Of a DNA stretch of 11,530 bases, positions 1 through 11,411 are shown in pieces. Each line of letters starts with the position of its first letter. The first letter of the stretch is position 1. The notes beneath the pieces were generated by a model. It did not search any database. It saw only the letters and a list, made by a program, of their open reading frames with translations, and had not been told where the DNA came from. The position numbers and the translations under genes are program-made. This stretch comes from an uncultured archaeon. GTDB taxonomy: Archaea; Thermoplasmatota; Penumbrarchaeia; JASLWR01. The stretch lies in assembly GCA_964342815.1 (NCBI GenBank), contig CAYFHS010000018.1, forward strand, positions 1-11,530, given 5' to 3'.

Positions 1-54
1 CAAGTGGGGAATTTTCAAGCGCCGAAATTGGGGAAAATTGGAGCGCCGTTGACA
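1..54. mobile_element. Terminal segment of a probable IS21-family insertion sequence (element extends left of the window)
   Basis: The reverse complement of 1-54 reads TGTCAACGGCGCTCCAATTTTCCCCAATTTCGGCGCTTGAAAATTCCCCACTTG. It has a 5'-TGT end followed by two spaced copies of an AA(A/T)(A/T)TTCCCCA-containing repeat, the architecture known for IS21-family ends (TG...CA termini, multiple internal transposase-binding repeats). The upstream membrane-protein frame changes character exactly at this boundary. No istA/istB is visible in the window. Confidence 0.7.
5..48 (+). repeat. Two imperfect 20-nt direct repeats, 24-nt period (putative transposase-binding sites)
   Basis: 5-24 TGGGGAATTTTCAAGCGCCG versus 29-48 TGGGGAAAATTGGAGCGCCG; 16/20 identical. 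Confidence 0.85.
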
Positions 55-300
55 TAACAATAACATATATAATCCAGCTAAACTAAAAATAGTTAAAGCA
101 ATAATTCCCACGCCCTGTCCAAGATAATATGCGAAGGAGGAGATGATATGGCGATCACCCATCAATACTTTAGATAAACTTTCAAATAAATGTTTTTTAC
201 CTTCTTTTAAGCGGCGGATCTGATATAGATTGAAAACACCAGCGAGAGAAAATAGGAATGCTGCCAGTATTGCGATTCCTTGATTTGGTGTGTCCATCAT
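55..300 (-). pseudogene. Small two-TM membrane protein, 3' end interrupted or replaced by the IS end (frame stays open to the window edge)
   Basis: Hand translation from ATG 300: MMDTPNQGIAILAAFLFSLAGVFNLYQIRRLKEGKKHLFESLSKVLMGDRHIISSFAYYLGQGVGIIALTIFSLAGLYMLLL (82 codons), then CQRRSNFPQFRRLKIPHL from IS sequence with no stop before position 1. Two hydrophobic segments flank a basic loop. AGGAAG lies 8 nt upstream, and the gene starts 23 nt after the stop of 324..743. It is absent from the ORF track, presumably because no stop lies in the window. Confidence 0.55.
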
Positions 301-323
301 ATGCGATACTTCCTGTCTCAAGT

Positions 324-743
324 CTAATCTTCGAAAGTATATTTCAATTTCCCTTTTATGAAAACCATATACCTATAACCACGAAATGCAGGAAAAAGGT
401 TCCGAGGTTTTTTGGGTTCGATCATAATAAAGATCGCTTCTTTCTTTAGATCATCAATATATGACATTACTACATTACCACGTAATAATCCTTGATTTGT
501 GATATTATTGTTCACCAATATTTGAAATGTTCCAACTCTTTTGACAAGGTAAAACTCTATTTTACAGGTCGAATTTTGTTTTAATTTAAATTCAAATTTT
601 ATATATTTTTCATTTAACTTTTTTTTCTTTCTTATCAATATATATGAGAGTTTGATAAAATAAATTAAGTATATGATGATGAATGATAACATTAATACCA
701 TCAAGAATAATCCAATGCGCTGGCCGGTAGATATGATATTCAT
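324..743 (-). CDS. Hypothetical membrane-anchored protein (N-terminal TM, basic stretch, beta-rich soluble part)
   Basis: 139-aa ORF in very AT-rich DNA, where such length is unlikely by chance. Hydrophobic segment IGLFLMVLMLSFIIIYLIYFI is followed by RKKKK. A TATA-like box lies upstream. No family recognised. Confidence 0.65.
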   Translation of the reverse strand: MNIISTGQRIGLFLMVLMLSFIIIYLIYFIKLSYILIRKKKKLNEKYIKFEFKLKQNSTCKIEFYLVKRVGTFQILVNNNITNQGLLRGNVVMSYIDDLKKEAIFIMIEPKKPRNLFPAFRGYRYMVFIKGKLKYTFED

Positions 744-770
744 ACCTCATTAATTTTTGTTTTTCTCTCC

Positions 771-780
771 TTATATAAAA
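771..780 (-). promoter_or_regulatory. Candidate archaeal TATA box for the 324..743 / 55..300 pair
   Basis: Minus-strand TTTTATATAA ends 28 nt upstream of ATG 743, matching archaeal spacing with a very short leader. The region is AT-rich, so a chance match is possible. Confidence 0.35.
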
Positions 781-1182
781 TCCTCATACACTATAGATTT
801 TACTCTTTATTGTTCCATGAATTACAATTTCTAAGCTCTGTAACGGCTTATTAAGGAAGTTATAAGGATCGGGAGAGTGCGGGCTAGGTAGGACACCTTT
901 AAGAGACGTCCTTCATCCAGAATGACCGAAACGGTTTTTACGAGATGGGAAAACGGGAATGGAAACAATATATATGATGGAATGGATGTATAATAAATGG
1001 AGGCGAAGAACAATTCGAAATTGACTATATGAAAACAATAAAGTCTGATTTACGCTCAATAAATACATCGCGTTTTAAAGAAATCTATTATAACAATATT
1101 AATATCGAGGATTTTTTATTTTAAAATTTTACATATAAAATTACAATTAATAATCAAATCATATTTGGTTCATGGTGGAAAA

Positions 1183-1746
1183 ATGGCGCAGCGAGAAAGA
1201 AAAATGAAAGATTGCCCAATATGTGGTTGTAAACTAAATCCGAAAAATTATGAAAGACATCTTTCCAAGGTCCATGGTACTGATCCTGAAAAACAAGAGA
1301 TAGAGGATAAAAGAAAATTAACAAGAGCGGAGGAGCGGAAATTGGAATATGAACAGAGAAGCAAGAAAATAAAAATTGCATTCACTATTACATTTATTGT
1401 TGTTATTGGAATTGTGATTTATTTCATAATGTTCCCGGATGATATGTCCGTGGATAACTTATTGCCAATTGGGGACGATGAAGGTCCCATAGCAAATGCA
1501 GGTCATGATGAAACGGTAGCTGTTGGTGAAGTAATTTCATTTACCGGGACTGGTTCCGGTTCAACTGGTTCTTTTGTCCAATTTGAATGGGATTTTGATG
1601 GCGATGGGATATATGATAATAGTTGTGGAACATGCGGCAATATACAACATTCATATGATGAGGCAGGCATCTATACTGCTACATTCAGAATAACAGATAG
1701 CGCTGGTGCAACAGGAACTGATACTCGCATTATCACCGTGATCTAG
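1183..1746 (+). CDS. C2H2-type zinc finger / single TM / PKD-domain protein
   Basis: CPICGCKLNPKNYERHLSKVH (C-x2-C-x11-H-x4-H), a charged coiled segment, TM IAFTITFIVVIGIVIYFIMF, then PKD hallmarks (PIANAG, ISFTG, FEWDFDGDG, HSYDEAGIYTATFRITDSAG). ATG 1183 with GGTGG upstream is preferred over TTG 1165. Confidence 0.85.
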   Translation: MAQRERKMKDCPICGCKLNPKNYERHLSKVHGTDPEKQEIEDKRKLTRAEERKLEYEQRSKKIKIAFTITFIVVIGIVIYFIMFPDDMSVDNLLPIGDDEGPIANAGHDETVAVGEVISFTGTGSGSTGSFVQFEWDFDGDGIYDNSCGTCGNIQHSYDEAGIYTATFRITDSAGATGTDTRIITVI

Positions 1747-1883
1747 TGAAAATTCGGTCCCGGTATATTATTTTTCATAATGGAATTTCTTTAGTATTGA
1801 ATTGTTTTTCATTTGATGAAAATATGTTATGGTTTTACTCATGATTTAGCTCCTCGTAATAAAAATTAGGAAACTTAAATAGT

Positions 1884-2693
1884 TCAATCTTCAGTATTTG
1901 TATCCAACATTTTAATTTCGAATATCATCGGTCTGCCGCCCAAGTGCTTGTAATCGTCCTCTCCATATCCCTTTTCCGGGGGTATCTCCACAACCCTGCT
2001 TTGACCTTCCCTCATCCCTTTGAGGCCCTCTTCAAAACCGATAATGACCGAGTTATCCTCTGCTTCGAATTCCCCCCCCTGATTGTGGTACCATCCATAC
2101 TCATTGAATATCTCTCCACCGCCGTAATACACCAAATTGTAATCGACCTTCGCCGGGTGATTATCCAGATCAGCTTCTTCGGAGCTAAATAGATCAACAG
2201 TATTCTTTGTTGTGATATATCCGGTCCTTGACGAATTTGTCGTTGATCTCACCTTAATTTTAATTTCCTGAAAAGTGTCTTTTTCCGTAATTTCGGTGGT
2301 AATCGTTACAATTTTGTAGCCCCATTCTTCTCCCGGAATCTGATTTAATTCATCACCGCCCGAAAAGGTTACATTCCAGCTGTTCGGGGCGTCAGATTCA
2401 AAAATGAACGAATCTTCTTTTATACCAGGGTTTTTTACAAGCACCAGATATTGCGTACCCACATCGGGATCTACCAGGTGAGAACTGCATTTGTATGGTT
2501 CATGACCACCATCTTCCTCATTCATGGTCTCAACTTTCATTGGAATTGAAGATTCGATTTTTAAATTATCGTCATCATCCTCATTATTGTCCTCGGTACC
2601 ATTGTCTTTTTTATCAGCGTTGATACATCCTACACTCCAGATGACCAGTAATACAGATATGCATGCTATAAAGGTCAATGACTTGTTCAGCAT
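1884..2693 (-). CDS. Predicted lipoprotein with a C-terminal FKBP-type peptidyl-prolyl isomerase domain and an N-terminal Ig-like (COG1470/NEW3-like) domain
   Basis: Signal/lipobox MLNKSLTFIACISVLLVIWSVG-C, an acidic linker, then YLVLVKNPGIKEDSFIFESDAPNSWNVTFS (Ig-like strand pattern). FKBP core VIIGFEEGLKGMREGQSRVVEIPPEKGYG...HLGGRPMIFEIKML. ATG 2693 has GGGTG 7 nt upstream; the ORF-track start at 2744 is less likely. Confidence 0.8.
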   Translation of the reverse strand: MLNKSLTFIACISVLLVIWSVGCINADKKDNGTEDNNEDDDDNLKIESSIPMKVETMNEEDGGHEPYKCSSHLVDPDVGTQYLVLVKNPGIKEDSFIFESDAPNSWNVTFSGGDELNQIPGEEWGYKIVTITTEITEKDTFQEIKIKVRSTTNSSRTGYITTKNTVDLFSSEEADLDNHPAKVDYNLVYYGGGEIFNEYGWYHNQGGEFEAEDNSVIIGFEEGLKGMREGQSRVVEIPPEKGYGEDDYKHLGGRPMIFEIKMLDTNTED

Positions 2694-2730
2694 TTTTTTA
2701 CACCCTGATTTTGAATAATACGGCACCTCA

Positions 2731-2738
2731 TTTATAAA
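2731..2738 (-). promoter_or_regulatory. Candidate archaeal TATA box for the FKBP lipoprotein gene
   Basis: TTTATAAA would place a start site near 2706, just ahead of the GGGTG RBS (2705-2701). A minus-strand T5 run at 2783-2779, about 20 nt after the activase stop, could end the upstream operon transcript. Confidence 0.4.
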
Positions 2739-2803
2739 TATCACTTAATTTTTGTTCTTAAACGCAATATTCTCAGCCAAAAAGTACACCCATTTAGATA
2801 CAT

Positions 2804-3601
2804 CTACTGCCTTTTCAAAAACATCTTCCTCGCTATTATCGCCGCACCCGTGGCAGTCACGATCTGGGGCATTGGAGGCACTACCATCTTCCGGCCCAGT
2901 TCAACCTCAAGAGCAGCTATCATTCCGATGTTTCTTGCCGGACCCCCATCGAAGAATACGTTATCACGGATCCCCACTTTCTTTGCCATACCCACAAGTC
3001 TTCTTGCCACCGCCTTGTGTATCCCTGCAATTATATCCTCCTTCTTTTCGCCCTTGAAAATAAGTGAAGCCACTTCTGATTTAGCAAATACCAGACAGGT
3101 CGTTGTGATATCCACGGGATTCTTGGAGCTCAGAGAAAGCTCCCCCATATCGTCGAGATCGACTTCCAGAACCCGTGCTAGTATCTCCAGGAACCGTCCG
3201 GTCCCGGCGGCGCACTTGTCGTTCATGGCAAAGTTTGTCATCTTCAGATCGTCATCAAGCGCAATTACCTTGGTGTCCTGCCCCCCTATATCGATGATCG
3301 TTCGTATTTTCTGTGTTTGTGCAATATGCTGCACTCCCGTGGCATTGGCGCTTATCTCGGATATGTTCTCGTCTGCAAAGCTTACCACTCTTCTGCCGTA
3401 TCCCGTGGACACCATATAATCCACTTTCCGGGGATTGATCTTCGCCAGACGACACGCCCGCTTCATCGTCTTCTTGGCTGTCTCTTCGTGGTCGGATCCT
3501 GTGGGAGATACTGCATATCCCACAATTTCCGTATTCTTCATTACCACCACCTTTGCGTAAGTGGACCCAAGATCGATTCCCGCTGTCAGCGTATCCCCCA
3601 T
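2804..3601 (-). CDS. ATP-dependent [4Fe-4S] electron-transfer activase (HgdC/BcrAD-BadFG/DCCP-R-like, ASKHA fold)
   Basis: GIDLGSTYAK, STGYGR, DIGGQDTK, NDKCAAGTGRFLE (C130), TTCLVFAKSEV (C169), DGGPARN and a C-terminal ATGAAIIA motif. Start overlaps the upstream stop (TGATG); GGTGA lies 6 nt upstream. Confidence 0.93.
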   Translation of the reverse strand: MGDTLTAGIDLGSTYAKVVVMKNTEIVGYAVSPTGSDHEETAKKTMKRACRLAKINPRKVDYMVSTGYGRRVVSFADENISEISANATGVQHIAQTQKIRTIIDIGGQDTKVIALDDDLKMTNFAMNDKCAAGTGRFLEILARVLEVDLDDMGELSLSSKNPVDITTTCLVFAKSEVASLIFKGEKKEDIIAGIHKAVARRLVGMAKKVGIRDNVFFDGGPARNIGMIAALEVELGRKMVVPPMPQIVTATGAAIIARKMFLKRQ

Positions 3602-5874
3602 CAGGAATCACCCCCGGCTGAAGCAATGATCAATGCGGCACCGAACGCACCTACGAACATCGGTTCGTCGGCCACGGTCACACTGTGTTTCATCCTCTTT
3701 TCAAGCTCTGACACCACGTTCTCGTTGGCAGCCACTCCCCCGGCGAGCAGAATATCGCCCTTGATTCCCATGGACTTCGCTATAGCAGACACTTTTTTGG
3801 CCACCATCTCGTTCAATCCCCCTATGATATTCTCTTTGTTGATCTTTTTAGCCACCAGTGAAACCATTTCGGATTCGGCGAAAACCGTGCACGTCGCCAC
3901 AACGCAGGACGGGCAGTCAGCCGCGCATCCGAGAGCGCCCATTTCATCCGGTTCCACGCCAAGCGACGCCGCCATTGTATCGAGAAACGTTCCAGTACCC
4001 GACGAGCATTTGTCGTTGGTCTTGAACGACGACAATACTCCGCCATCATCCAGGTCCATGACCCTTATCCCCTGACCTCCTATGTCTACCACTAGTCTAA
4101 CAGAATCCATCTGGGCCTTGGCTCCCTTGGCGAAGGCCGATATCTCCGTGGCATCCATATCTGCGAACTCGATGGAGTTCTTCCCCTGCCCTGTGGCAAT
4201 AATACCGGTAATATCTTTTTTCTTCAGACGGTTCTTCCGAAGCAGCTTTCTGAACATCCGGTAACCCAGGGAGTTGGGATCCATGGTGGTGGAATCCATC
4301 AATCTGTCCTTGACCTCGCCACCGCGAACGAGAACCATTTTTGTATATAACGCACCAACGTCGATTCCTACAAAATATTCGTCCCGCGTTGACTTATCTA
4401 ATTTCTTTTTTTCCCGGCTGCTTCCCAATAATCTTTTCTCTTCGGCCAATCCCGCCAGTTCCTCCAACTTCGTATCCCCGAATCCCTTTACCTCCTCCAC
4501 CGCCTGTTTTCCTGTTTTTTTGAACTCTTTTCGGGACTTGATCATTTCCAGGAAAGCTTCCACCCTTGTCCTGATCTGCTCCACATCCCCCTCGTCATAT
4601 TCCGTCTCCAATTTCAACATGGAAATCTGATTTTTTCGGAGCTCCATATCGATCCTGGAAGCTTCCAGGTTATTCAAATGACATCCCCGAAGAACGTGGA
4701 AAAGTACACCGTCCAGATCGTATTCTTCTAAATGATTGTTCATTCTCGTTATCCTCTCGTCGTTGGGAGTGAAACACGGACATGTGCATGGATAAAGATA
4801 CCGCTCCGCAATGGCCGTCACCATGGATGACATGGACCCCTCATCGATAACCACGGGGTCTTGAAGCAGCCGAGTGCTGGAGCACAGCTCATCTATGATT
4901 ATTATCCCGTCCGATTCCTCGACAAGATTGGGGATCTTCCAGTTAGGCCACATGATGGGGGAGCCCGCCAGAAGAATCCTTGGTGAATTTTCTCTTGCCA
5001 CCCATTCCTTTCGGGATTCTAGCTCGTCTATCTCCTTCAACAGTTTTTCCATATTCTCGCACCAACGGGGCAGGTCATCAATCAGAGAAAGCTGGGAGAT
5101 CAAGATCATGTCGGCACCCCAGAGGGATACCCGGTTCCGTTTTCTCGTTTCCATCAGTTTAGTCCAGAGGCGGACCGCCTCGTTATATTGACCAATCGCG
5201 TTTCTCAGGGATGCTCTCTTTATCCGAGCTCCGGTGAGGTCCTCAAGGCGGTACATGAGAAATTTCATTTCCTCAAGCCATGTCTTTGAGTTTGTGTCGC
5301 CGGTCTTGACCCTGGGGACGTTGAGCATCAATACCGGCACGAAATCCGAAAGTATTTCACCCAGCTTCATTTTCCCGTCGCAGGTGGCCGGTGCCACAAC
5401 AAGATCGCATAGCTCAAAGTAGGGGTCCGATTCTACCATCTTGTTACCCAGTGTCGATTTCACCATGGGACACAACCCGGCATCCCCCAGCAGCTCATTG
5501 GCAGGATGAACTGGATCATAATATCCGGAACACAAACGAACAACCTTTGCTCCCGTTGCCATGATCAGTTCATTTGGTGTGAAAACACAGAGGCTTCCCA
5601 CGATCTTTCCACCCTTTTCCTTGAACTCCTTCAATTCGGCGATGCGAGGCGAGTCACAGCCGGCCATCTCGTCGAAATAGCTCATGGCCTTTGGTCGGGG
5701 TTTCATGGATTCACGGTATTCCCTGTTCCGGACTGCCATCTCCATATTTCCCTTAGTCGTCTTTTCCCTCTGTTCCTCTATGTCCTGTTTCATGTCCTCC
5801 CGCATGTAACGAGGCTGGTTCACATTCGACAGTTCGGTAATAGAGTTATCCGTTTTTTTCCTGAAAATTCCCAA
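3601..5874 (-). CDS. Fusion: double-cubane cluster protein (2-hydroxyacyl-CoA dehydratase-family fold, aa ~56-446) + activase-like ASKHA domain (aa ~500-757)
   Basis: N domain motifs RPKAMSYFD, LCVFTPNEL (C96), LCSG, LCPMVKS (C135), TCDGK (C165), PRILLAGSP, WKI, DELC (C331), CTCPCFTPN (C367), LRGCH (C398) and LKLETEY...QIRTRVEAFLEMI parallel the Carboxydothermus DCCP sequence as I recall it. C domain: GIDVG, DIGGQ, NDKC623, TC662TVFAESE, GGVA, GAFGAAL. TTG start with GAGGTG 6 nt upstream. Confidence 0.88.
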   Translation of the reverse strand: MGIFRKKTDNSITELSNVNQPRYMREDMKQDIEEQREKTTKGNMEMAVRNREYRESMKPRPKAMSYFDEMAGCDSPRIAELKEFKEKGGKIVGSLCVFTPNELIMATGAKVVRLCSGYYDPVHPANELLGDAGLCPMVKSTLGNKMVESDPYFELCDLVVAPATCDGKMKLGEILSDFVPVLMLNVPRVKTGDTNSKTWLEEMKFLMYRLEDLTGARIKRASLRNAIGQYNEAVRLWTKLMETRKRNRVSLWGADMILISQLSLIDDLPRWCENMEKLLKEIDELESRKEWVARENSPRILLAGSPIMWPNWKIPNLVEESDGIIIIDELCSSTRLLQDPVVIDEGSMSSMVTAIAERYLYPCTCPCFTPNDERITRMNNHLEEYDLDGVLFHVLRGCHLNNLEASRIDMELRKNQISMLKLETEYDEGDVEQIRTRVEAFLEMIKSRKEFKKTGKQAVEEVKGFGDTKLEELAGLAEEKRLLGSSREKKKLDKSTRDEYFVGIDVGALYTKMVLVRGGEVKDRLMDSTTMDPNSLGYRMFRKLLRKNRLKKKDITGIIATGQGKNSIEFADMDATEISAFAKGAKAQMDSVRLVVDIGGQGIRVMDLDDGGVLSSFKTNDKCSSGTGTFLDTMAASLGVEPDEMGALGCAADCPSCVVATCTVFAESEMVSLVAKKINKENIIGGLNEMVAKKVSAIAKSMGIKGDILLAGGVAANENVVSELEKRMKHSVTVADEPMFVGAFGAALIIASAGGDS

Positions 5875-5885
5875 TCTTCACACCT

Positions 5886-6830
5886 CTATTTGTTGGGTTT
5901 TGATTCAATGATCGTTTTGTTGAATGCCAGCAAACCCAGCGCACCCTGCTCGGGACAGCACTCCACGCATCTGCCGCAAAGTGTGCACTCGGGTCCTGTA
6001 ATATTTTCCTTCTCCATCTCTTCATAAACCGTATGAAAATCCTGTGGACAGACACGCAGGCATATGCGGCATTTCGTGCATTTAGCCGGGTCTTTGCGCA
6101 GCCATATCAGAGATAGTTTATTGAACAATGCCATAAGCGCACCCATGGGACATATCCTGCACCAGAACATTCTTATGAAAAATGATCCAACAACGAAAAG
6201 TACGAGAACGATAATCGCGGTAATTGGTAATGCTGCTGAAGTGATACCGAAGGGTGCCTGAAGTAATGTAAAAAAACCTTGAGCGGGACATATCTGACAG
6301 TAAGGAAGTGATAGGGTTGCGGAATATTCACCAAATCCAAGGCTCGGGATTCCAATGCTTATTGCCACCAGGAGAGTAAAGAATAAAACCGCATATTTCA
6401 GCTGGTCCAGAAGGGAGATCCATTTCCGACTCAGCTGCAAATGAGGTATTCGCAGGGACTGTCTTATGGACATCAGCAGCTCCTGGGTCAATCCGAAAGG
6501 ACAAGCCCAGGAACACCACGTTCTTCCAAGGGCAACTATCAATAATAAAATTATGAGCATGGGTGTGATCATGTCAACATAAAAGGTTGAATATCCTCCC
6601 TGTAGCCATTGTTGCAGCGAATAGTAATAGCAGTAGGTTGGAGCATTGACGATGTAGCGGCATGATGCATTGGGGAGCAGTACGTAGCGTAATGTAGGGT
6701 CTCTTCCAAATTCGAACATTCCGAACAGAAGGCTGTTCAGGAGTATGAATATAAAAAATGCGATGAGCCTGCGGATAATGGTGATCCGTTTCTGTTTCGC
6801 CCATTCTTTCAACGACAAAATGAGACTCAT
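5886..6830 (-). CDS. Membrane polyferredoxin, NapH/MauN/RdxA-like 4Fe-4S binding protein
   Basis: Multiple TM segments; GRTWCSWACPFG, YCQICPAQG and FWCRICPMG motifs; two C-terminal ferredoxin motifs CTKCRICLRVCP and CTLCGRCVECCP. ATG 6830 (GGAGG 6 nt upstream, overlapping the upstream TGA) is preferred over 6851. Confidence 0.9.
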   Translation of the reverse strand: MSLILSLKEWAKQKRITIIRRLIAFFIFILLNSLLFGMFEFGRDPTLRYVLLPNASCRYIVNAPTYCYYYSLQQWLQGGYSTFYVDMITPMLIILLLIVALGRTWCSWACPFGLTQELLMSIRQSLRIPHLQLSRKWISLLDQLKYAVLFFTLLVAISIGIPSLGFGEYSATLSLPYCQICPAQGFFTLLQAPFGITSAALPITAIIVLVLFVVGSFFIRMFWCRICPMGALMALFNKLSLIWLRKDPAKCTKCRICLRVCPQDFHTVYEEMEKENITGPECTLCGRCVECCPEQGALGLLAFNKTIIESKPNK

Positions 6831-7552
6831 CATCCCCCTCCCACGACGCATTGTCCGGTAAAATATTTATTCATATAGTAAATCCCAATGCCAAGAAGGG
6901 TGAGGAGACTCATCATATTGAGAGTAAATGAGATCTTTGGATTGGCCTTCAAAGCAGCCAGTTGTGTGATAAGGTCCCCGATAAGAAAACCGATGATGGG
7001 GTATGCGCTGGAGGTGATGGCAAAAACCGCGGTGAGAAGGATTGCCAGAGGGAATCCCGTGGTGATCAAAAGGGGGGCCAGTATCAGCATCTTAAGGCAT
7101 GGTGTGGCCCCACGTAACATTCCGTATAGAAAACCGGTCTTTCCAGATATTTTTCCGGGCGGACTGTGCATGCTGCATCCCCCGCACCCCGTTCTTTCCT
7201 CTGTGCCGCATCCCGTGGGACATGAGGCGCAGTTTGTGCATCCTTCGTTTTCCCGTCTCACTCGCTTTGCCCTCCGCAATCCTGGTAGGATGTGTTTTAC
7301 AAAGATAAAAAGTGCAAACAGTACAGTAATTATCCCGAAGATCAGGGTATAAATATCGGTTGGGATATCGATGAAAAGTCCAAAGAGAGAAATTATAGTT
7401 CCCAACGTCATGATACCGATAAAACGTCCCAGAATGAAAGAGAGAGCCATGCTTTTAGAATGTGTGCGGTTGCCAAACGACAGAAGTAAACAGACCCAGG
7501 AATTCCAGAAAGAAACACCTATCATGGCTGCTGCCGCCACTTCCGGCCACAT
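6830..7552 (-). CDS. Polytopic membrane protein, CcdA/DsbD_2 (TauE/UreH-like) superfamily, with a Cys-rich loop
   Basis: About 6 hydrophobic segments; C21 in the first TM and GFLYGMLRGATPC152 resemble the two-Cys CcdA/DsbD_2 pattern. Loop CTNCASCPTGC...GCGGC. Start overlaps the upstream stop (TAATG). Confidence 0.65.
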   Translation of the reverse strand: MWPEVAAAAMIGVSFWNSWVCLLLSFGNRTHSKSMALSFILGRFIGIMTLGTIISLFGLFIDIPTDIYTLIFGIITVLFALFIFVKHILPGLRRAKRVRRENEGCTNCASCPTGCGTEERTGCGGCSMHSPPGKISGKTGFLYGMLRGATPCLKMLILAPLLITTGFPLAILLTAVFAITSSAYPIIGFLIGDLITQLAALKANPKISFTLNMMSLLTLLGIGIYYMNKYFTGQCVVGGG

Positions 7553-8865
7553 TATACCCGTCCCCTCCCTTTGCGGATCGATTTTGTCAATACGCTAAGC
7601 TCAACAAGAAATAATATTACCAGAACCAGCAGGATTATTTGAAGAATCAGTTTGAAAACATCGGTCTCTCCCAGGATTATCTCGATATCGTGTGTCTTTC
7701 CGTCTATCACGTAGATATGCGGCGAAGTGTAACCGCTTGTGTAATCCCCCTTTCCCTGGTAACCCCCCTGTGCAGCAATTATTTCCAGCTGTGGGTCCGC
7801 ATCCAGGTCCACTGCGGTAATTCCCATGACATCGGTGCCTAATAATGGACTCTTCCATTCGATATCATGGGTCATTCCGTCGATAATATAGAGATAACCG
7901 GGTTGATTTCCAACCATTATCTCCTCAACGTCATCGTCATCAACGTCCGCAACCGCAAAGCCAAAGGGTTTTGGTCCCAGGTTGCCGCTTTTGTAAAGCT
8001 TTTTATAAATCCCATCTGCAGGATCATACTGGAAAATATAGATCCAACCGTCGTTATAACGATAACCGTTCGATAAAACTATGTTCGGAGTCCCATCATT
8101 GTCGACGTCGCGTATAGCCAGCCCCTGCACGCATCCTCCCAGATCGTCGCTCTCCCATTCGGGTTTCCCCCTGGAATTGTTCGTGACATTATATACTCTA
8201 ATGTAACCTTCACCCGCTACATCGCCCAGAGCCGCCCCGCATCCGGCCACAACCTCCACGATACCGTCACCGTCAACGTCTCCCACGTCGATAGCCCGCC
8301 ACCTGGAATTGGCCTTCGCCGTCATAAAGAAGGGTTTATCGGTGCCACACTCTATCACATAGAACATCCCGTTCGGTTCATCGGTCTTGTATGCCGTACC
8401 CACTACGATATCATCCTTGCCGTCTCCTGTAAAATCATGAAGAGCGATTCCATGGGCATCCCTCCCCGATCCCTCATATTTCCATAGCAGTTTGCCGTCC
8501 TCCCCGGAAAATACAAATATTTTTCCCATACCGTTCCCAACCACAATTTCAACCCCATCGTCACCGTACACGTCCCCCAACTCGATTCCCCATACGCGAT
8601 TACCGCCCACCTCCAGGCTGTATTCGAGGAAGAAATCGCCCCGGACATATTCCAAAACGGTGACATATCCGTTGTAATCCCCGTAGACGAGTTCGATCTT
8701 GCCGTCGCCGTCAATGTCGCCGGCCTTGATTGAATTGTATCTCCCGGGTGCGGTATTGAAATCTTCACCGGAGACCTCGGCATTTATCGGGCCAGCAAAC
8801 GAAATTGTAATGAGAACGAGAAACAGAGAGAAACAGCTCAGCTTTCGAAAAAGATTTATCCGCAA
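7552..8865 (-). CDS. Secreted FG-GAP/VCBS-repeat beta-propeller with a C-terminal TM anchor
   Basis: Signal peptide; seven DxDxDG-type repeats (GDIDGDGKIE, GDVYGDDGVE, HDFTGDGKDD, GDVDGDGIVE, RDVDNDGTPN, ADVDDDDVEE, VDLDADPQLE); hydrophobic C-terminus followed by KSIRKGRGR. TTG start 1 nt after the upstream stop. Confidence 0.9.
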   Translation of the reverse strand: MRINLFRKLSCFSLFLVLITISFAGPINAEVSGEDFNTAPGRYNSIKAGDIDGDGKIELVYGDYNGYVTVLEYVRGDFFLEYSLEVGGNRVWGIELGDVYGDDGVEIVVGNGMGKIFVFSGEDGKLLWKYEGSGRDAHGIALHDFTGDGKDDIVVGTAYKTDEPNGMFYVIECGTDKPFFMTAKANSRWRAIDVGDVDGDGIVEVVAGCGAALGDVAGEGYIRVYNVTNNSRGKPEWESDDLGGCVQGLAIRDVDNDGTPNIVLSNGYRYNDGWIYIFQYDPADGIYKKLYKSGNLGPKPFGFAVADVDDDDVEEIMVGNQPGYLYIIDGMTHDIEWKSPLLGTDVMGITAVDLDADPQLEIIAAQGGYQGKGDYTSGYTSPHIYVIDGKTHDIEIILGETDVFKLILQIILLVLVILFLVELSVLTKSIRKGRGRV

Positions 8866-8866
8866 C

Positions 8867-10084
8867 TCAACCCCGCCTCCGCCTTAGTTTCTTTTTGAAT
8901 GGTCTGATAACTAGAAGGATCACGAAAACCACCGATACAAAAGTAAATATGCCCAGACCGACCCGGGTCTTTGTAAATATAATAAACTCTTCCACCGGTT
9001 CCTTCATGGAATACATTACTATATAGCGGGATTTCCCTAGAGCTGACACGAATTTACTGCCGTCAGGAGACCATCTTGAAGCCATTACGTTCGAATCGTA
9101 TTTCTCGCCCTCCCTGAATATAACTATTGGCTCGGATACTGCGGGATTATAAATACGGGCTCTCTTCTCTATACCTGAAGTTAGAAAATAATCGTTTGAC
9201 CTGGACCATCGGGCGCCTCTTACACAGTTATCGTGCTCGTATTTCTTGTGTGATCCCGCTTCAAGATCCCAAACCCTAGCTGTATAATCCCGGCTTCCGC
9301 TCACAATCCTCTTCTCATCCAAAGACCAATCGCAGTCCAGTACTCCGGAGGTATGGCCTTCGAGTTTTTTCCAAAGCGAGAAATTACCGGTCTCATAGAT
9401 GCAAATGGTGGTGTCGTCAGAATTTACTGCAAGTTTAGATCCACTGGGGCTGAACCGGGCCGAAATAATTGGTCCTGCAGTCTGATCAGCAAGGGTTCGG
9501 ATACATTTCCCCGTGGCCACATCCCATACTTTTGCGACATTTTTCGAGACGCCCGTACCATTTACTTTTTCTCTTCCTGACCCGCTGACAATCCAAGTAC
9601 CGTTAGGTGACCAATCGACGCATAGAACGGAACCCAGATGCCCGGAGAGCTTTTTATTCTCGGTCCAATCCGAGGTGGTAAAGATGTGGATTACTTTGTC
9701 ATCCCCGCAAACCGCAAGATACCTGCTGTCGGGAGAGAACGACAGATAACGCAATGGATGCTGGATCCCGGCAGGAACCAATCCGTCGCAGCGAGTTCGA
9801 GTATCCGGAATACCGAAGGAATGTTCCAGCACTCCAGTGCTGGCATTGTAAATGTTCACTTGTCTGTCGAAATAGACTCCCGCGATCATGGAACCGTCCG
9901 GAGACCAGTCACACATCCACAGTGTCGCCAGCGAATCAGTCCTCTGTGCCTCCCATTCAACCGTCAACCAGTCCGGGCGTAGTTCGGTAGACGTTTCGCC
10001 CTTTACAGCAAACGGGATCTTTAATGAAATGGATAAAATGATCTGTATGAGGATGACAGATAGGGCTAAATATCTACGAATCAT
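8867..10084 (-). CDS. WD40-repeat beta-propeller with a signal peptide and C-terminal TM anchor
   Basis: About 7 WD40 repeats (DWSPDGSMIA, SFSPDSRYLA, SGHLGSVLCVDWSPNG...KVWD, RFSPSGSKLA, EGHTSGVLDCDWS...RVWD, RWSRSND, RWSPDGSKF). N-terminal hydrophobic leader; TM VGLGIFTFVSVVFVILLVI + RPFKKKLRRRR. Start overlaps the upstream gene by 11 nt; GGAGG upstream. Confidence 0.92.
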   Translation of the reverse strand: MIRRYLALSVILIQIILSISLKIPFAVKGETSTELRPDWLTVEWEAQRTDSLATLWMCDWSPDGSMIAGVYFDRQVNIYNASTGVLEHSFGIPDTRTRCDGLVPAGIQHPLRYLSFSPDSRYLAVCGDDKVIHIFTTSDWTENKKLSGHLGSVLCVDWSPNGTWIVSGSGREKVNGTGVSKNVAKVWDVATGKCIRTLADQTAGPIISARFSPSGSKLAVNSDDTTICIYETGNFSLWKKLEGHTSGVLDCDWSLDEKRIVSGSRDYTARVWDLEAGSHKKYEHDNCVRGARWSRSNDYFLTSGIEKRARIYNPAVSEPIVIFREGEKYDSNVMASRWSPDGSKFVSALGKSRYIVMYSMKEPVEEFIIFTKTRVGLGIFTFVSVVFVILLVIRPFKKKLRRRRG

Positions 10085-11411
10085 TTTTTTTCAACCTCCT
10101 CTTGCGGGATATCAAAATCACCAAAAATAATATGTCCAAAATAGCAAAAACAATAATCGGGATCAAAAGAGTCGGATAGAGCTTCAATTCTTCGTCTTGC
10201 GCCGTTTCATCCGTCTCTCCATCTATTTCACCGATTTCAACTCCTTTCAAACAATACATGTAACCGTCAGTGCTACCGACATAAAGATTCGCTCCCGAGA
10301 AAACAGGCGAGGCAACTATGGTTCCGGCTGTCTTGAAGCTCCATTCCTCGGTGCCGTTTTCATAATTTATTGAAAATAATGAATCACCCATTCCAATAAC
10401 AATAATATCCGAAATAATAAGTGGTGACGATCCGCCCTCGAAGTTCTCCGCTTCGAACTTCCAAATAACCTCACCCGGACTGATTATTTTATTGTCATCA
10501 GGGTCCTCGAAGGGTATACAATATATAAATTCGTAATCCGAAAAGAAGATTCTATCCTTGTTCATGCCTGCGGAAGTGTACATATCCGTCCCGGCCTTGA
10601 ATTCCCATACAATTTGCCCCGTTTTTCCGTTGTATCGGTATAGCGACCGGTCGATCCCGGAGGAAAATAGAATATCGTCTCCCTCGATCATAACCGTGGA
10701 ATAGATGTCGCCGTCCGTTATAATCTCGTAGATGAACTCGCCTGATTTTGCGTCCAGGCAGACCAATCTTCCCGATGAATCTCCGATATAAAGTAGATTA
10801 TCCTTAATTGCGGGAGTGGACCATACGCTGCCGCCGAATGAAATTGAATAATTCCAGGCCATTGTACCGTTATTTTCGTGTAAACAGTAGATATTTCCAT
10901 CATCAGCACCGAAGTATATTTTTTCCTTGTACAGTTTGGGAGAGCTCATTATCCCTCTGCCAGCGGAAAAATTCCATTGCTCAATACCGTACTCGGCATT
11001 GATACAGTAAAATTTTTTATCTCCACTACCGATGTATAATTTCGCTTTGGACACCAGAGGCGAACTGGAAATATCACCTCCTGTGGGAAAGATCCATTTT
11101 ACGACACCGGTTTGTGCATCGAGACAGTAAACGGATCCGTCCTTGGAACCGAAATATATCTTTCCGGACACTACTGCCGGGGAAGATTCGATCCCTCCGT
11201 CAGTCTTGAACTTCCAGAGCAGTTCATCAGTGGTTCTTCCCTTGGAAGGATAGATCCCGCTGTTTGAGTTATCCCCCCTGAACTGGTTCCAATCACTATT
11301 CCCTCTGGTGAATTCACCAGCTGCAATTGAGGTATTAACCAAGAATAGAAGGAATAACATACCTGCGATCATAATTGTCTTTATTTCGATTCCCGAAAAG
11401 CTCTCTTCCAT
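10074..11411 (-). CDS. PQQ-binding-like (BamB-type repeat) 8-bladed beta-propeller with a signal peptide and C-terminal TM anchor
   Basis: WNQFRGDNSNSG leader motif and eight blades of the SSPxV...YFGS.DG..YCLD...G...W type; TM LLIPIIVFAILDILFLVILI + RKRRLKK. An alternative start is ATG 11372. Confidence 0.92.
   Translation of the reverse strand: MEESFSGIEIKTIMIAGMLFLLFLVNTSIAAGEFTRGNSDWNQFRGDNSNSGIYPSKGRTTDELLWKFKTDGGIESSPAVVSGKIYFGSKDGSVYCLDAQTGVVKWIFPTGGDISSSPLVSKAKLYIGSGDKKFYCINAEYGIEQWNFSAGRGIMSSPKLYKEKIYFGADDGNIYCLHENNGTMAWNYSISFGGSVWSTPAIKDNLLYIGDSSGRLVCLDAKSGEFIYEIITDGDIYSTVMIEGDDILFSSGIDRSLYRYNGKTGQIVWEFKAGTDMYTSAGMNKDRIFFSDYEFIYCIPFEDPDDNKIISPGEVIWKFEAENFEGGSSPLIISDIIVIGMGDSLFSINYENGTEEWSFKTAGTIVASPVFSGANLYVGSTDGYMYCLKGVEIGEIDGETDETAQDEELKLYPTLLIPIIVFAILDILFLVILISRKRRLKKNDS

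Follow-up and report, generated by a model that had tools for sequence, protein, structure and literature searches.

The systems closest to the one considered here are DCCP, the double-cubane cluster protein of Carboxydothermus hydrogenoformans, with its reductase DCCP-R (6ENO, 7YYL, 7YZM; PMC9351452, PMC7317905) and the ATPase module of the class I benzoyl-CoA reductases (BcrA/BcrD, BzdP/BzdQ, MbdP/MbdQ; 9GAI, 8S02; PMC11971306). DCCP-R is the product of one gene and forms homodimers. The solved DCCP2:DCCP-R2 complex contains one reductase dimer, which lies on the DCCP dimer's two-fold axis, and the C-terminal helix of each DCCP touches one reductase subunit (PMC9351452). The class I benzoyl-CoA reductases possess two adjacent paralogous activase genes and an unfused BcrB/C or BzdN/O pair, of which BzdN carries a double-cubane cluster. 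Fused DCCP-reductases have already been described as well, including the 'class III' DCCPs, single chains of about 550 residues that lack the seventh cysteine of the DCCP motif (PMC7317905). The subject of this report is a gene for 757 residues on the minus strand of an archaeal contig (positions 3601-5874 of the stretch of 11,530 nucleotides analysed, referred to below as the window). It encodes a DCCP domain joined through a linker to an activase domain, here called ACT1, and is followed by a gene for a free activase of 265 residues, ACT2 (2804-3601, minus strand).

Since DCCP-reductase fusions are already published, what is new at this locus is this particular fusion and the systematic asymmetry between ACT1 and ACT2 that lies behind it. 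As an evolutionary step, the fusion is modest. The most informative feature is the set of degenerate ATP-site motifs in the fused activase copy.

A DCCP fused to its neighbouring activase

The sequence-only reading of this DNA had placed a DCCP-like domain, a linker rich in lysine and glutamate and an ASKHA domain in one chain, and searches with HGD-D, NF040772, BcrAD_BadFG and TIGR00241 bore this out. The reading frame is open from end to end and closes with a stop codon at 3601-3603. Its DCCP domain comprises residues 56-446 (4537-5709). Pfam HGD-D matched residues 96-445 (E 5e-90), the NCBIfam model NF040772 'double_cubane' scored 353.8 bits against a cut-off of 350, and the PDB entries 6ENO and 7YYL aligned across residues 56-446 with E values of about 1e-78. 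When the AF2 model of the fused protein (pLDDT 83.5, pTM 0.74) was compared with 6ENO by Foldseek, the TM score was 0.90 normalised to the target; HadC and BzdN were poorer matches. The NCBIfam models for dehydratase and benzoyl-CoA reductase subunits gave scores far below their cut-offs. By all tests run, the N-terminal domain classifies as a DCCP and groups with DCCPs rather than with single-cubane dehydratase subunits, in agreement with the sequence-only reading.

The likeness to the Carboxydothermus system covers a full-length alignment, the seven cysteines of the published DCCP motif (PMC7317905) and an ASKHA partner with two cysteines. The motif is formed here by C96, C115, C135, C165, C331, C365 and C398. 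Their spacings of 18, 19, 29, 165, 33 and 32 residues match the published motif within one residue, and the ligand numbering was taken from the motif and residue numbers in PMC7317905 and PMC9351452. C115 aligns with Cys94 of DCCP_Ch, the seventh cysteine, which is not a ligand. Five of the six ligands originally named (C96, C135, C165, C331 and C398) align with DCCP cysteines and are invariant in 22 orthologs. The sixth, C367, fared less well. It belongs to a CxCxC run together with C363 and C365, and C365 is more likely to be the ligand because the X33/X32 spacings fit the published motif and because C365 is invariant in the 22 orthologs; C367 is replaced by serine in one of them. The domain would bind an [8Fe-9S] double-cubane cluster, most likely via C96, C135, C165, C331, C365 and C398.

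One stretch of the domain differs from the solved protein at the docking face. R110 and N111 of DCCP contact DCCP-R in the solved complex (PMC9351452), whereas alanine and glycine stand at these positions here (5464-5478, residues 133-137, in the GDAGLCP region) and in all DCCPs with ACT1/ACT2 partners. A distant DCCP paralog without nearby activases (L049) keeps Arg-Asn.

The Lys/Glu-rich linker (residues 447-499, 53 residues; 4378-4536) is predicted to be disordered. It begins right after the C-terminal DCCP helix (H428-454 in the AF2 model), the helix that faces the reductase in the Carboxydothermus complex, and residues 456-496 have a pLDDT below 50. Among the 51 linker residues counted there were 11 lysines and 8 glutamates. 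Across the fused clusters described below the linker is 54-64 residues long, and in all 11 fused homologs with a readable linker the first ~38 residues are conserved and the last 15-25 variable; judged from this pattern the linker is not mere filler.

The fused architecture was recovered in twelve clusters at 90% identity (JGI, ENA, NCBI and Logan), with 62-100% identity to the window protein; at the 50% level these collapse to one representative and one fragment. Among 61 related genomes it was found only in the window's own family, in G000 and G003. Surveyed in this way the domain architecture proved to be real, though not the first of its kind (PMC7317905). The next-best DCCP homologs are unfused proteins of 440-470 residues with 52-64% identity. 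In 14 related genomes DCCP, ACT1 and ACT2 are separate, usually overlapping genes of the same operon, which runs from genes for beta-propeller proteins through a NapH-like protein to DCCP, ACT1 and ACT2.

The fused activase domain shows 44-53% identity to the unfused ACT1 proteins versus 32-41% to ACT2, and the window's free activase is 62-72% identical to ACT2 of the 14 unfused genomes. A quick tree of 57 activase domains, rooted arbitrarily and containing 17 ACT1 and 19 ACT2 rows, had ACT1 and ACT2 each on one side of a branch with SH-aLRT 99; both together were separated from other activases with SH-aLRT 96, and the fused clade was nested within ACT1. Because of these identities and this nesting, the window gene is a DCCP joined to its downstream neighbour ACT1, with the free activase as the conserved third gene ACT2. 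On the sequence evidence we therefore see a lineage-specific fusion of two adjacent genes of a three-gene module that is widespread in the relatives. The unfused operon of Thermoplasmatota-like archaea (L004-L006, L037-L048) resembles the window in gene order, in its NapH-like and propeller neighbours and in the motif asymmetry described below. In contrast, only the window's family has the fusion, the conserved linker segment of ~38 residues and extra cysteines ahead of the cluster helix of ACT1.

In the closest unfused relative (genome G007, L004:3360-3420) only ~10 nucleotides separate the DCCP stop codon from the ACT1 core (GIDVGG) that follows in a different frame, and no ATG, GTG or TTG start precedes the core; the explanation may be an atypical start codon, a frameshift or a mistake in sequencing. 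In this arrangement the fused and the split state are therefore only a small change apart. Some variation was observed within and around the module. The fused protein of G003 has ~84 extra C-terminal residues beyond ACT1 (L031:4807-5060), and the free activase on the P0019 contig has 358 residues instead of about 265. DCCP orthologs with 53-59% identity and a NapH-like neighbour occur at L034 (G014), L036 (G006) and L051 with no downstream activase in the available sequence. Reading frames of 771, 949 and 739 residues in G051 and G050 were considered as activase fusions and rejected: their extra length is N-terminal to the DCCP part, resembles no activase in the searches and overlaps with further reading frames.

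A second fused lineage is represented by P0135, a protein of 837 residues with 40% identity to the window protein. In it, too, a DCCP and an ACT1-type domain (GGQS, SSGTGCF) form one chain, and an overlapping canonical ACT2 with TCLVFAKSE follows. Its linker is rich in proline, alanine and glycine and unrelated to that of the window, its ACT1 domain does not fall within the main ACT1 clade of the tree, and no NapH-like or propeller genes were found near it. Two independent fusions are the simplest reading. That ACT1 is always the fused partner is explained by the position of its gene, which adjoins that of DCCP.

The homolog search also returned many other fused HGD-D/activase proteins, in both domain orders. 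Of 22 sequences read, 19 belonged to this group (555-775 residues), and all 19 keep GGQD together with GTGRF or GSGRF. The 'class III' and other fused proteins taken for comparison (555-690 residues) are single chains like the window protein, many with the same order of domains, but they share only about 30% identity with it and have canonical ATP motifs. With 757 residues and the seventh cysteine C115, the window protein does not belong to 'class III'; it also has a degenerate ATPase domain and is followed by a second, free activase.

Unequal ATP sites in the two activases

ACT1 (residues 500-757; 3604-4377) has an ASKHA fold. BcrAD_BadFG matched residues 502-749 of the fused protein, TIGR00241 gave 191 bits for the ACT1 domain and 261 bits for ACT2, both above the cut-off, and both activases match the solved HadI, HgdC, MbdQ and DCCP-R. 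The two bridging cysteines that had been read in each of them were found at the expected places, as C623 (NDKC) and C662 (TCTVFAESE) in ACT1 and as C130 and C169 in ACT2. They are invariant in both paralogs, and ACT1 and ACT2 alike belong to the ASKHA activases with two cysteines.

The ATP sites are a different matter. The canonical phosphate motifs (DxGS.., GGQD.K, GTGRF) are present in ACT2, which reads DLGSTYAK, DIGGQDTK and GTGRFLE, but are absent from the fused ACT1 (DVGALYTK, DIGGQGIR, GTGTF) and from every ACT1 ortholog. The phosphate-1 motif is DxGA[I/L]xTK in 15 of 16 complete ACT1 sequences and DVGGVTTK in L004; the other two motifs read GG[Q/H]G[I/V]R and GTG[T/C/S]F in 17 of 17. 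The ACT2 rows have DxGSTYxK, GGQDTK and GTGRF, except for two divergent copies in G008 (GGQDSK in both, GTGKF in one). ACT1 has thus lost the serine of phosphate-1, the aspartate and lysine of GGQD.K and the arginine of GTGRF. The 20 canonical activase domains read all have the aspartate, as does every ACT2, and it is glycine in all 17 ACT1 sequences. In DCCP-R, S9-N11 and Q92-D94 bind the phosphates and D94 is a candidate for the catalytic base; K96 belongs to a hydrogen-bond network leading to the cluster and E69 has been called a 'redundant base' (PMC9351452). ACT1 retains both cysteines, the cluster helix TCTVFAESE, DxGG, GGVAxN, GAxGAA, and the equivalents of D11, T17, K18 and E69. ACT2 is much better conserved than ACT1, whose branches in the activase tree are several times longer.

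ACT2 carries a change of its own. In all ACT2 orthologs with an ACT1-type partner, lysine or arginine replaces the glutamate of the cluster helix (TCLVFAKSE). Since in DCCP-R the serine next to it on this helix extends to the partner subunit's phosphate loop (PMC9351452), the change could be compensatory, but it goes back to one evolutionary event only.

A Cys-rich loop acquired by the fused clade immediately precedes the ACT1 cluster helix (3904-3927; C650, C654 and C657 in LGC..DCPSC....C662). C654-Pro and one cysteine two or three residues upstream are kept in 12 of 12 fused cluster representatives. P0135 also has Cys-Pro at the position of C654, and the unfused ACT1 and ACT2 proteins have a residue other than cysteine, then proline.

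Other arrangements of these domains were seen in related sequences. In G008 a DCCP ortholog with 48% identity is followed by two activases (L047:5797-8802), both with canonical motifs, both on the ACT2 side of the tree and with the cluster helices AESE and AQSE; either a duplication of its own or an earlier state, prior to degeneration, is conceivable here. P0155 (588 residues) has tandem activase domains, the first canonical and the second strongly degenerate (GGQST, no NDKC context). The genome of the window itself, G000, contains other systems of the same superfamily (C31:39389-43410, C7:89120-91748, C22, C19, C9). They include a four-gene cluster with two HGD-D and two activase genes (one activase also with DxGA), a divergent HGD-D/activase pair, and three proteins of about 1430-1460 residues with two activase domains each.

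How the two activases may work together

We think it probable that ACT1 and ACT2 form one asymmetric reductase, tethered to the DCCP through ACT1. A heterodimer of the BcrA/BcrD kind is the most economical assumption, because ACT1 and ACT2 are distinct paralogs inherited together across the whole archaeal class. That the two form this heterodimer, that ACT1 has lost its ATPase activity and that electrons flow in the direction given below are our inferences. ACT1 and ACT2, both of the HgdC/DCCP-R type, would be old paralogs that bridge one [4Fe-4S] cluster with two cysteines each, as do BcrA/BcrD and MbdP/MbdQ. ACT2 would supply a competent ATP site, and ACT1 would be a partner conserved in structure but weakened or inactive in catalysis, although nucleotide binding may persist. 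Hydrolysis of ATP in ACT2 would then drive an electron of low potential out of the bridging cluster and into the double cubane. The fusion, a flexible linker leading off from the C-terminal helix of the DCCP, would hold the reductase beside its docking site.

The resemblance to the benzoyl-CoA reductases is closest in this ATPase part. In MbdP, the delta subunit of the MbdPQ heterodimer (9GAI), the two motifs changed in ACT1 read GGQT and GTGMF, and MbdQ is canonical; MbdP, however, keeps the GST of phosphate-1 and ACT1 does not. The literature search turned up no publication of the MbdONPQ structure. The partner of the BzdP/BzdQ-type module contains a double-cubane subunit, BzdN, comparable with the DCCP domain here. 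Class I benzoyl-CoA reductase nevertheless needs two different HGD-D subunits, whereas the window operon has one HGD-D gene only, fused to its activase, and the models benz_CoA_red_D, benz_CoA_red_A and bzdQ gave 93-173 bits against cut-offs of 313-578. The ATPase part would be comparable to a BCR-type alpha/delta pair in a system that is not a benzoyl-CoA reductase. From DCCP/DCCP-R the locus differs in having two paralogous reductase genes, one of them with changed ATP motifs and fused to the DCCP.

The pairing was also approached by complex prediction with two ACT1 domains, one ACT2 and one 4Fe-4S cluster, ACT2 being scored as the partner in competition. It gave an ipSAE of 0.49 (runs 0.53, 0.49 and 0.49) against 0.00 for the best control, with a partner pLDDT of at least 85 and at least 62% of the contacts common to the runs, and lends weak support to the pairing. 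Of 80 solved complexes 58 reach the pass mark, as do 2 of 110 mismatched pairs; among those that pass at 0.60 or below are only 7 of the 80 solved complexes and both mismatches. Because similar dimers have already been solved, the value of 0.49 may reflect memory.

Several points weigh against this arrangement. The pairing of ACT1 with ACT2 is deduced, and the complex prediction that speaks for it is weak. A more serious difficulty concerns stoichiometry. The fused dimer brings two ACT1 domains to an axis that accommodates one reductase dimer, so two heterodimers could not both dock in the known way on one fused dimer, and pairing of ACT1 with ACT1 across the axis would fit the solved symmetry better. 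The sequence-only reading, which had a fused and a free activase forming a heterodimer permanently attached to the DCCP, is thus supported in so far as the two are distinct co-inherited paralogs; it is the permanent attachment that creates the problem. Three ways out can be envisaged: alternating docking of the tethered units, a different quaternary structure, or pairing of ACT1 with ACT1. The degeneracy of ACT1 in the unfused relatives and its strict co-occurrence with ACT2 appear to argue against the last of these. ACT1 may, moreover, still bind or slowly hydrolyse ATP, because it keeps the first aspartate, the Thr-Lys of phosphate-1, the equivalent of E69 and GGVAxN. The second position after GS is variable even in canonical activases, and therefore only the change from serine to alanine counts at that motif. 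Finally, the extra cysteines of the fused clade could alter the ligation of the cluster.

A stricter version of the tethered ACT1:ACT2 reductase can be put forward, though tentatively. It would be an obligately asymmetric 'half-site' enzyme, serving the DCCPs of this archaeal group, in which a live ATPase, ACT2, and a degenerate, fast-evolving ACT1 share one [4Fe-4S] cluster, the degenerate partner having been fused independently in two lineages.

It is also conceivable, but unlikely, that the ACT1:ACT2 pair is fully active, hydrolysing ATP at both sites as is assumed for BcrA/BcrD, and that the changes in ACT1 merely tune the kinetics. The residues and motifs that ACT1 keeps (D11, T17, K18, the E69 equivalent, DxGG, GGVAxN and GAxGAA) would be in line with this, as would the one ATP per electron reported for class I benzoyl-CoA reductase (PMC11971306) despite the similar changes in MbdP. 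The invariable loss of the GGQD aspartate in 17 of 17 ACT1 sequences, set against its retention in all 20 canonical domains and in every ACT2, is difficult to reconcile with two working sites, particularly as the phosphate-1 serine and the GTGRF arginine have gone too and ACT1 has evolved much faster than ACT2.

We give even less weight to the symmetric alternative, in which the ACT1 domains of a (DCCP-ACT1)2 dimer would pair on the two-fold axis and form a [4Fe-4S] relay that needs little or no ATP, while an ACT2 homodimer feeds the relay or competes for the site. Its attraction is geometrical: the one reductase dimer of the solved complex lies on the DCCP axis with each helix touching one subunit, and in the fusion every DCCP chain brings exactly one ACT1. 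Other fused DCCP-like/activase proteins are apparently self-sufficient single genes, and the extra cysteines of the fused clade lie near the cluster helix. The ACT1 motifs are changed in the unfused relatives as well, however, and always in the company of ACT2. An ACT1 homodimer would lack the GGQD aspartate in both sites, the same docking face would be needed by two different dimers, and MbdPQ (9GAI), the only pair of paralogous activases with a solved structure, is a heterodimer whose delta subunit shows similar changes.

That we are dealing with an artefact of assembly or frameshift, or with a gene in decay, as the neighbouring frames in L004 might suggest, is scarcely credible and was rejected, given that the fused frame is shared by twelve independent 90% clusters from four data sources, with a linker of 54-64 residues whose first ~38 are conserved and with conserved synteny including the downstream ACT2.

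The operon and its probable connection to the membrane

These genes belong to a tight operon on the minus strand of the window, in which adjacent genes overlap or are only a few bases apart. In the direction of transcription it comprises a PQQ-like propeller (10074-11411), a WD40 propeller (8867-10084), an FG-GAP propeller (7552-8865), a Cys-rich membrane protein (6830-7552), a NapH/MauN-like polyferredoxin (5886-6851), the fused gene and the activase of 265 residues; the three beta-propeller proteins together occupy 7552-11411. No minus-strand terminator-like sites were found inside the operon, and promoter-like matches were at chance level. The fused gene starts with TTG, 7 nucleotides 3' of a Shine-Dalgarno-like GAGGTG and 11 nucleotides past the stop of the upstream gene. 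The first 55 residues form an N-terminal extension (5710-5874). This extension is included in the homolog P0011, in which residues 1-756 are conserved at 85% identity. The start of ACT2 overlaps the stop of the fused gene by one nucleotide (TGATG), with a GGTGA box just 5'.

The polyferredoxin directly upstream of the fused gene is a membrane protein with two Fer4_5 domains and a dicluster domain, and its position is kept in fused and unfused relatives; it would be the likely electron link to the membrane. The propeller genes are the conserved upstream portion of the operon in the relatives. Each propeller protein ends in a C-terminal hydrophobic stretch and a basic tail, which, read by eye, may be a membrane anchor. 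The polytopic protein of 240 residues encoded between them and the polyferredoxin has a Cys-rich loop (CxxCxxCxxxC...CxxC). It occurs in only part of the related operons, at 26-54% identity, and has no Pfam match even at E 10 and no NCBIfam match. The operon ends next to a stretch of low G+C content (window 1-2744; 31-35% versus about 50%), in which 1884-2744 encode a membrane-anchored FKBP-type protein with an acidic linker that is not conserved downstream of ACT2 at other loci.

Its NapH-like protein and surface propellers set this membrane-linked operon apart from the DCCP/DCCP-R system, and we found no literature linking double-cubane proteins to Thermoplasmatota or to NapH. The strict linkage provides a physiological context, and such a membrane-wired operon may point to the role of the DCCP. 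A pair of one canonical and one degenerate ATPase subunit would be a natural test of whether both ATP sites are needed. If the asymmetric reading is true, one ATP site would be enough to drive an electron, and the fused protein would be a natural complex of fixed stoichiometry, suited to structural studies and to measuring how much ATP is consumed per electron. With the covalent tether DCCP and ACT1 come in a fixed ratio, which could ease purification and cryo-EM of a complex that otherwise dissociates.

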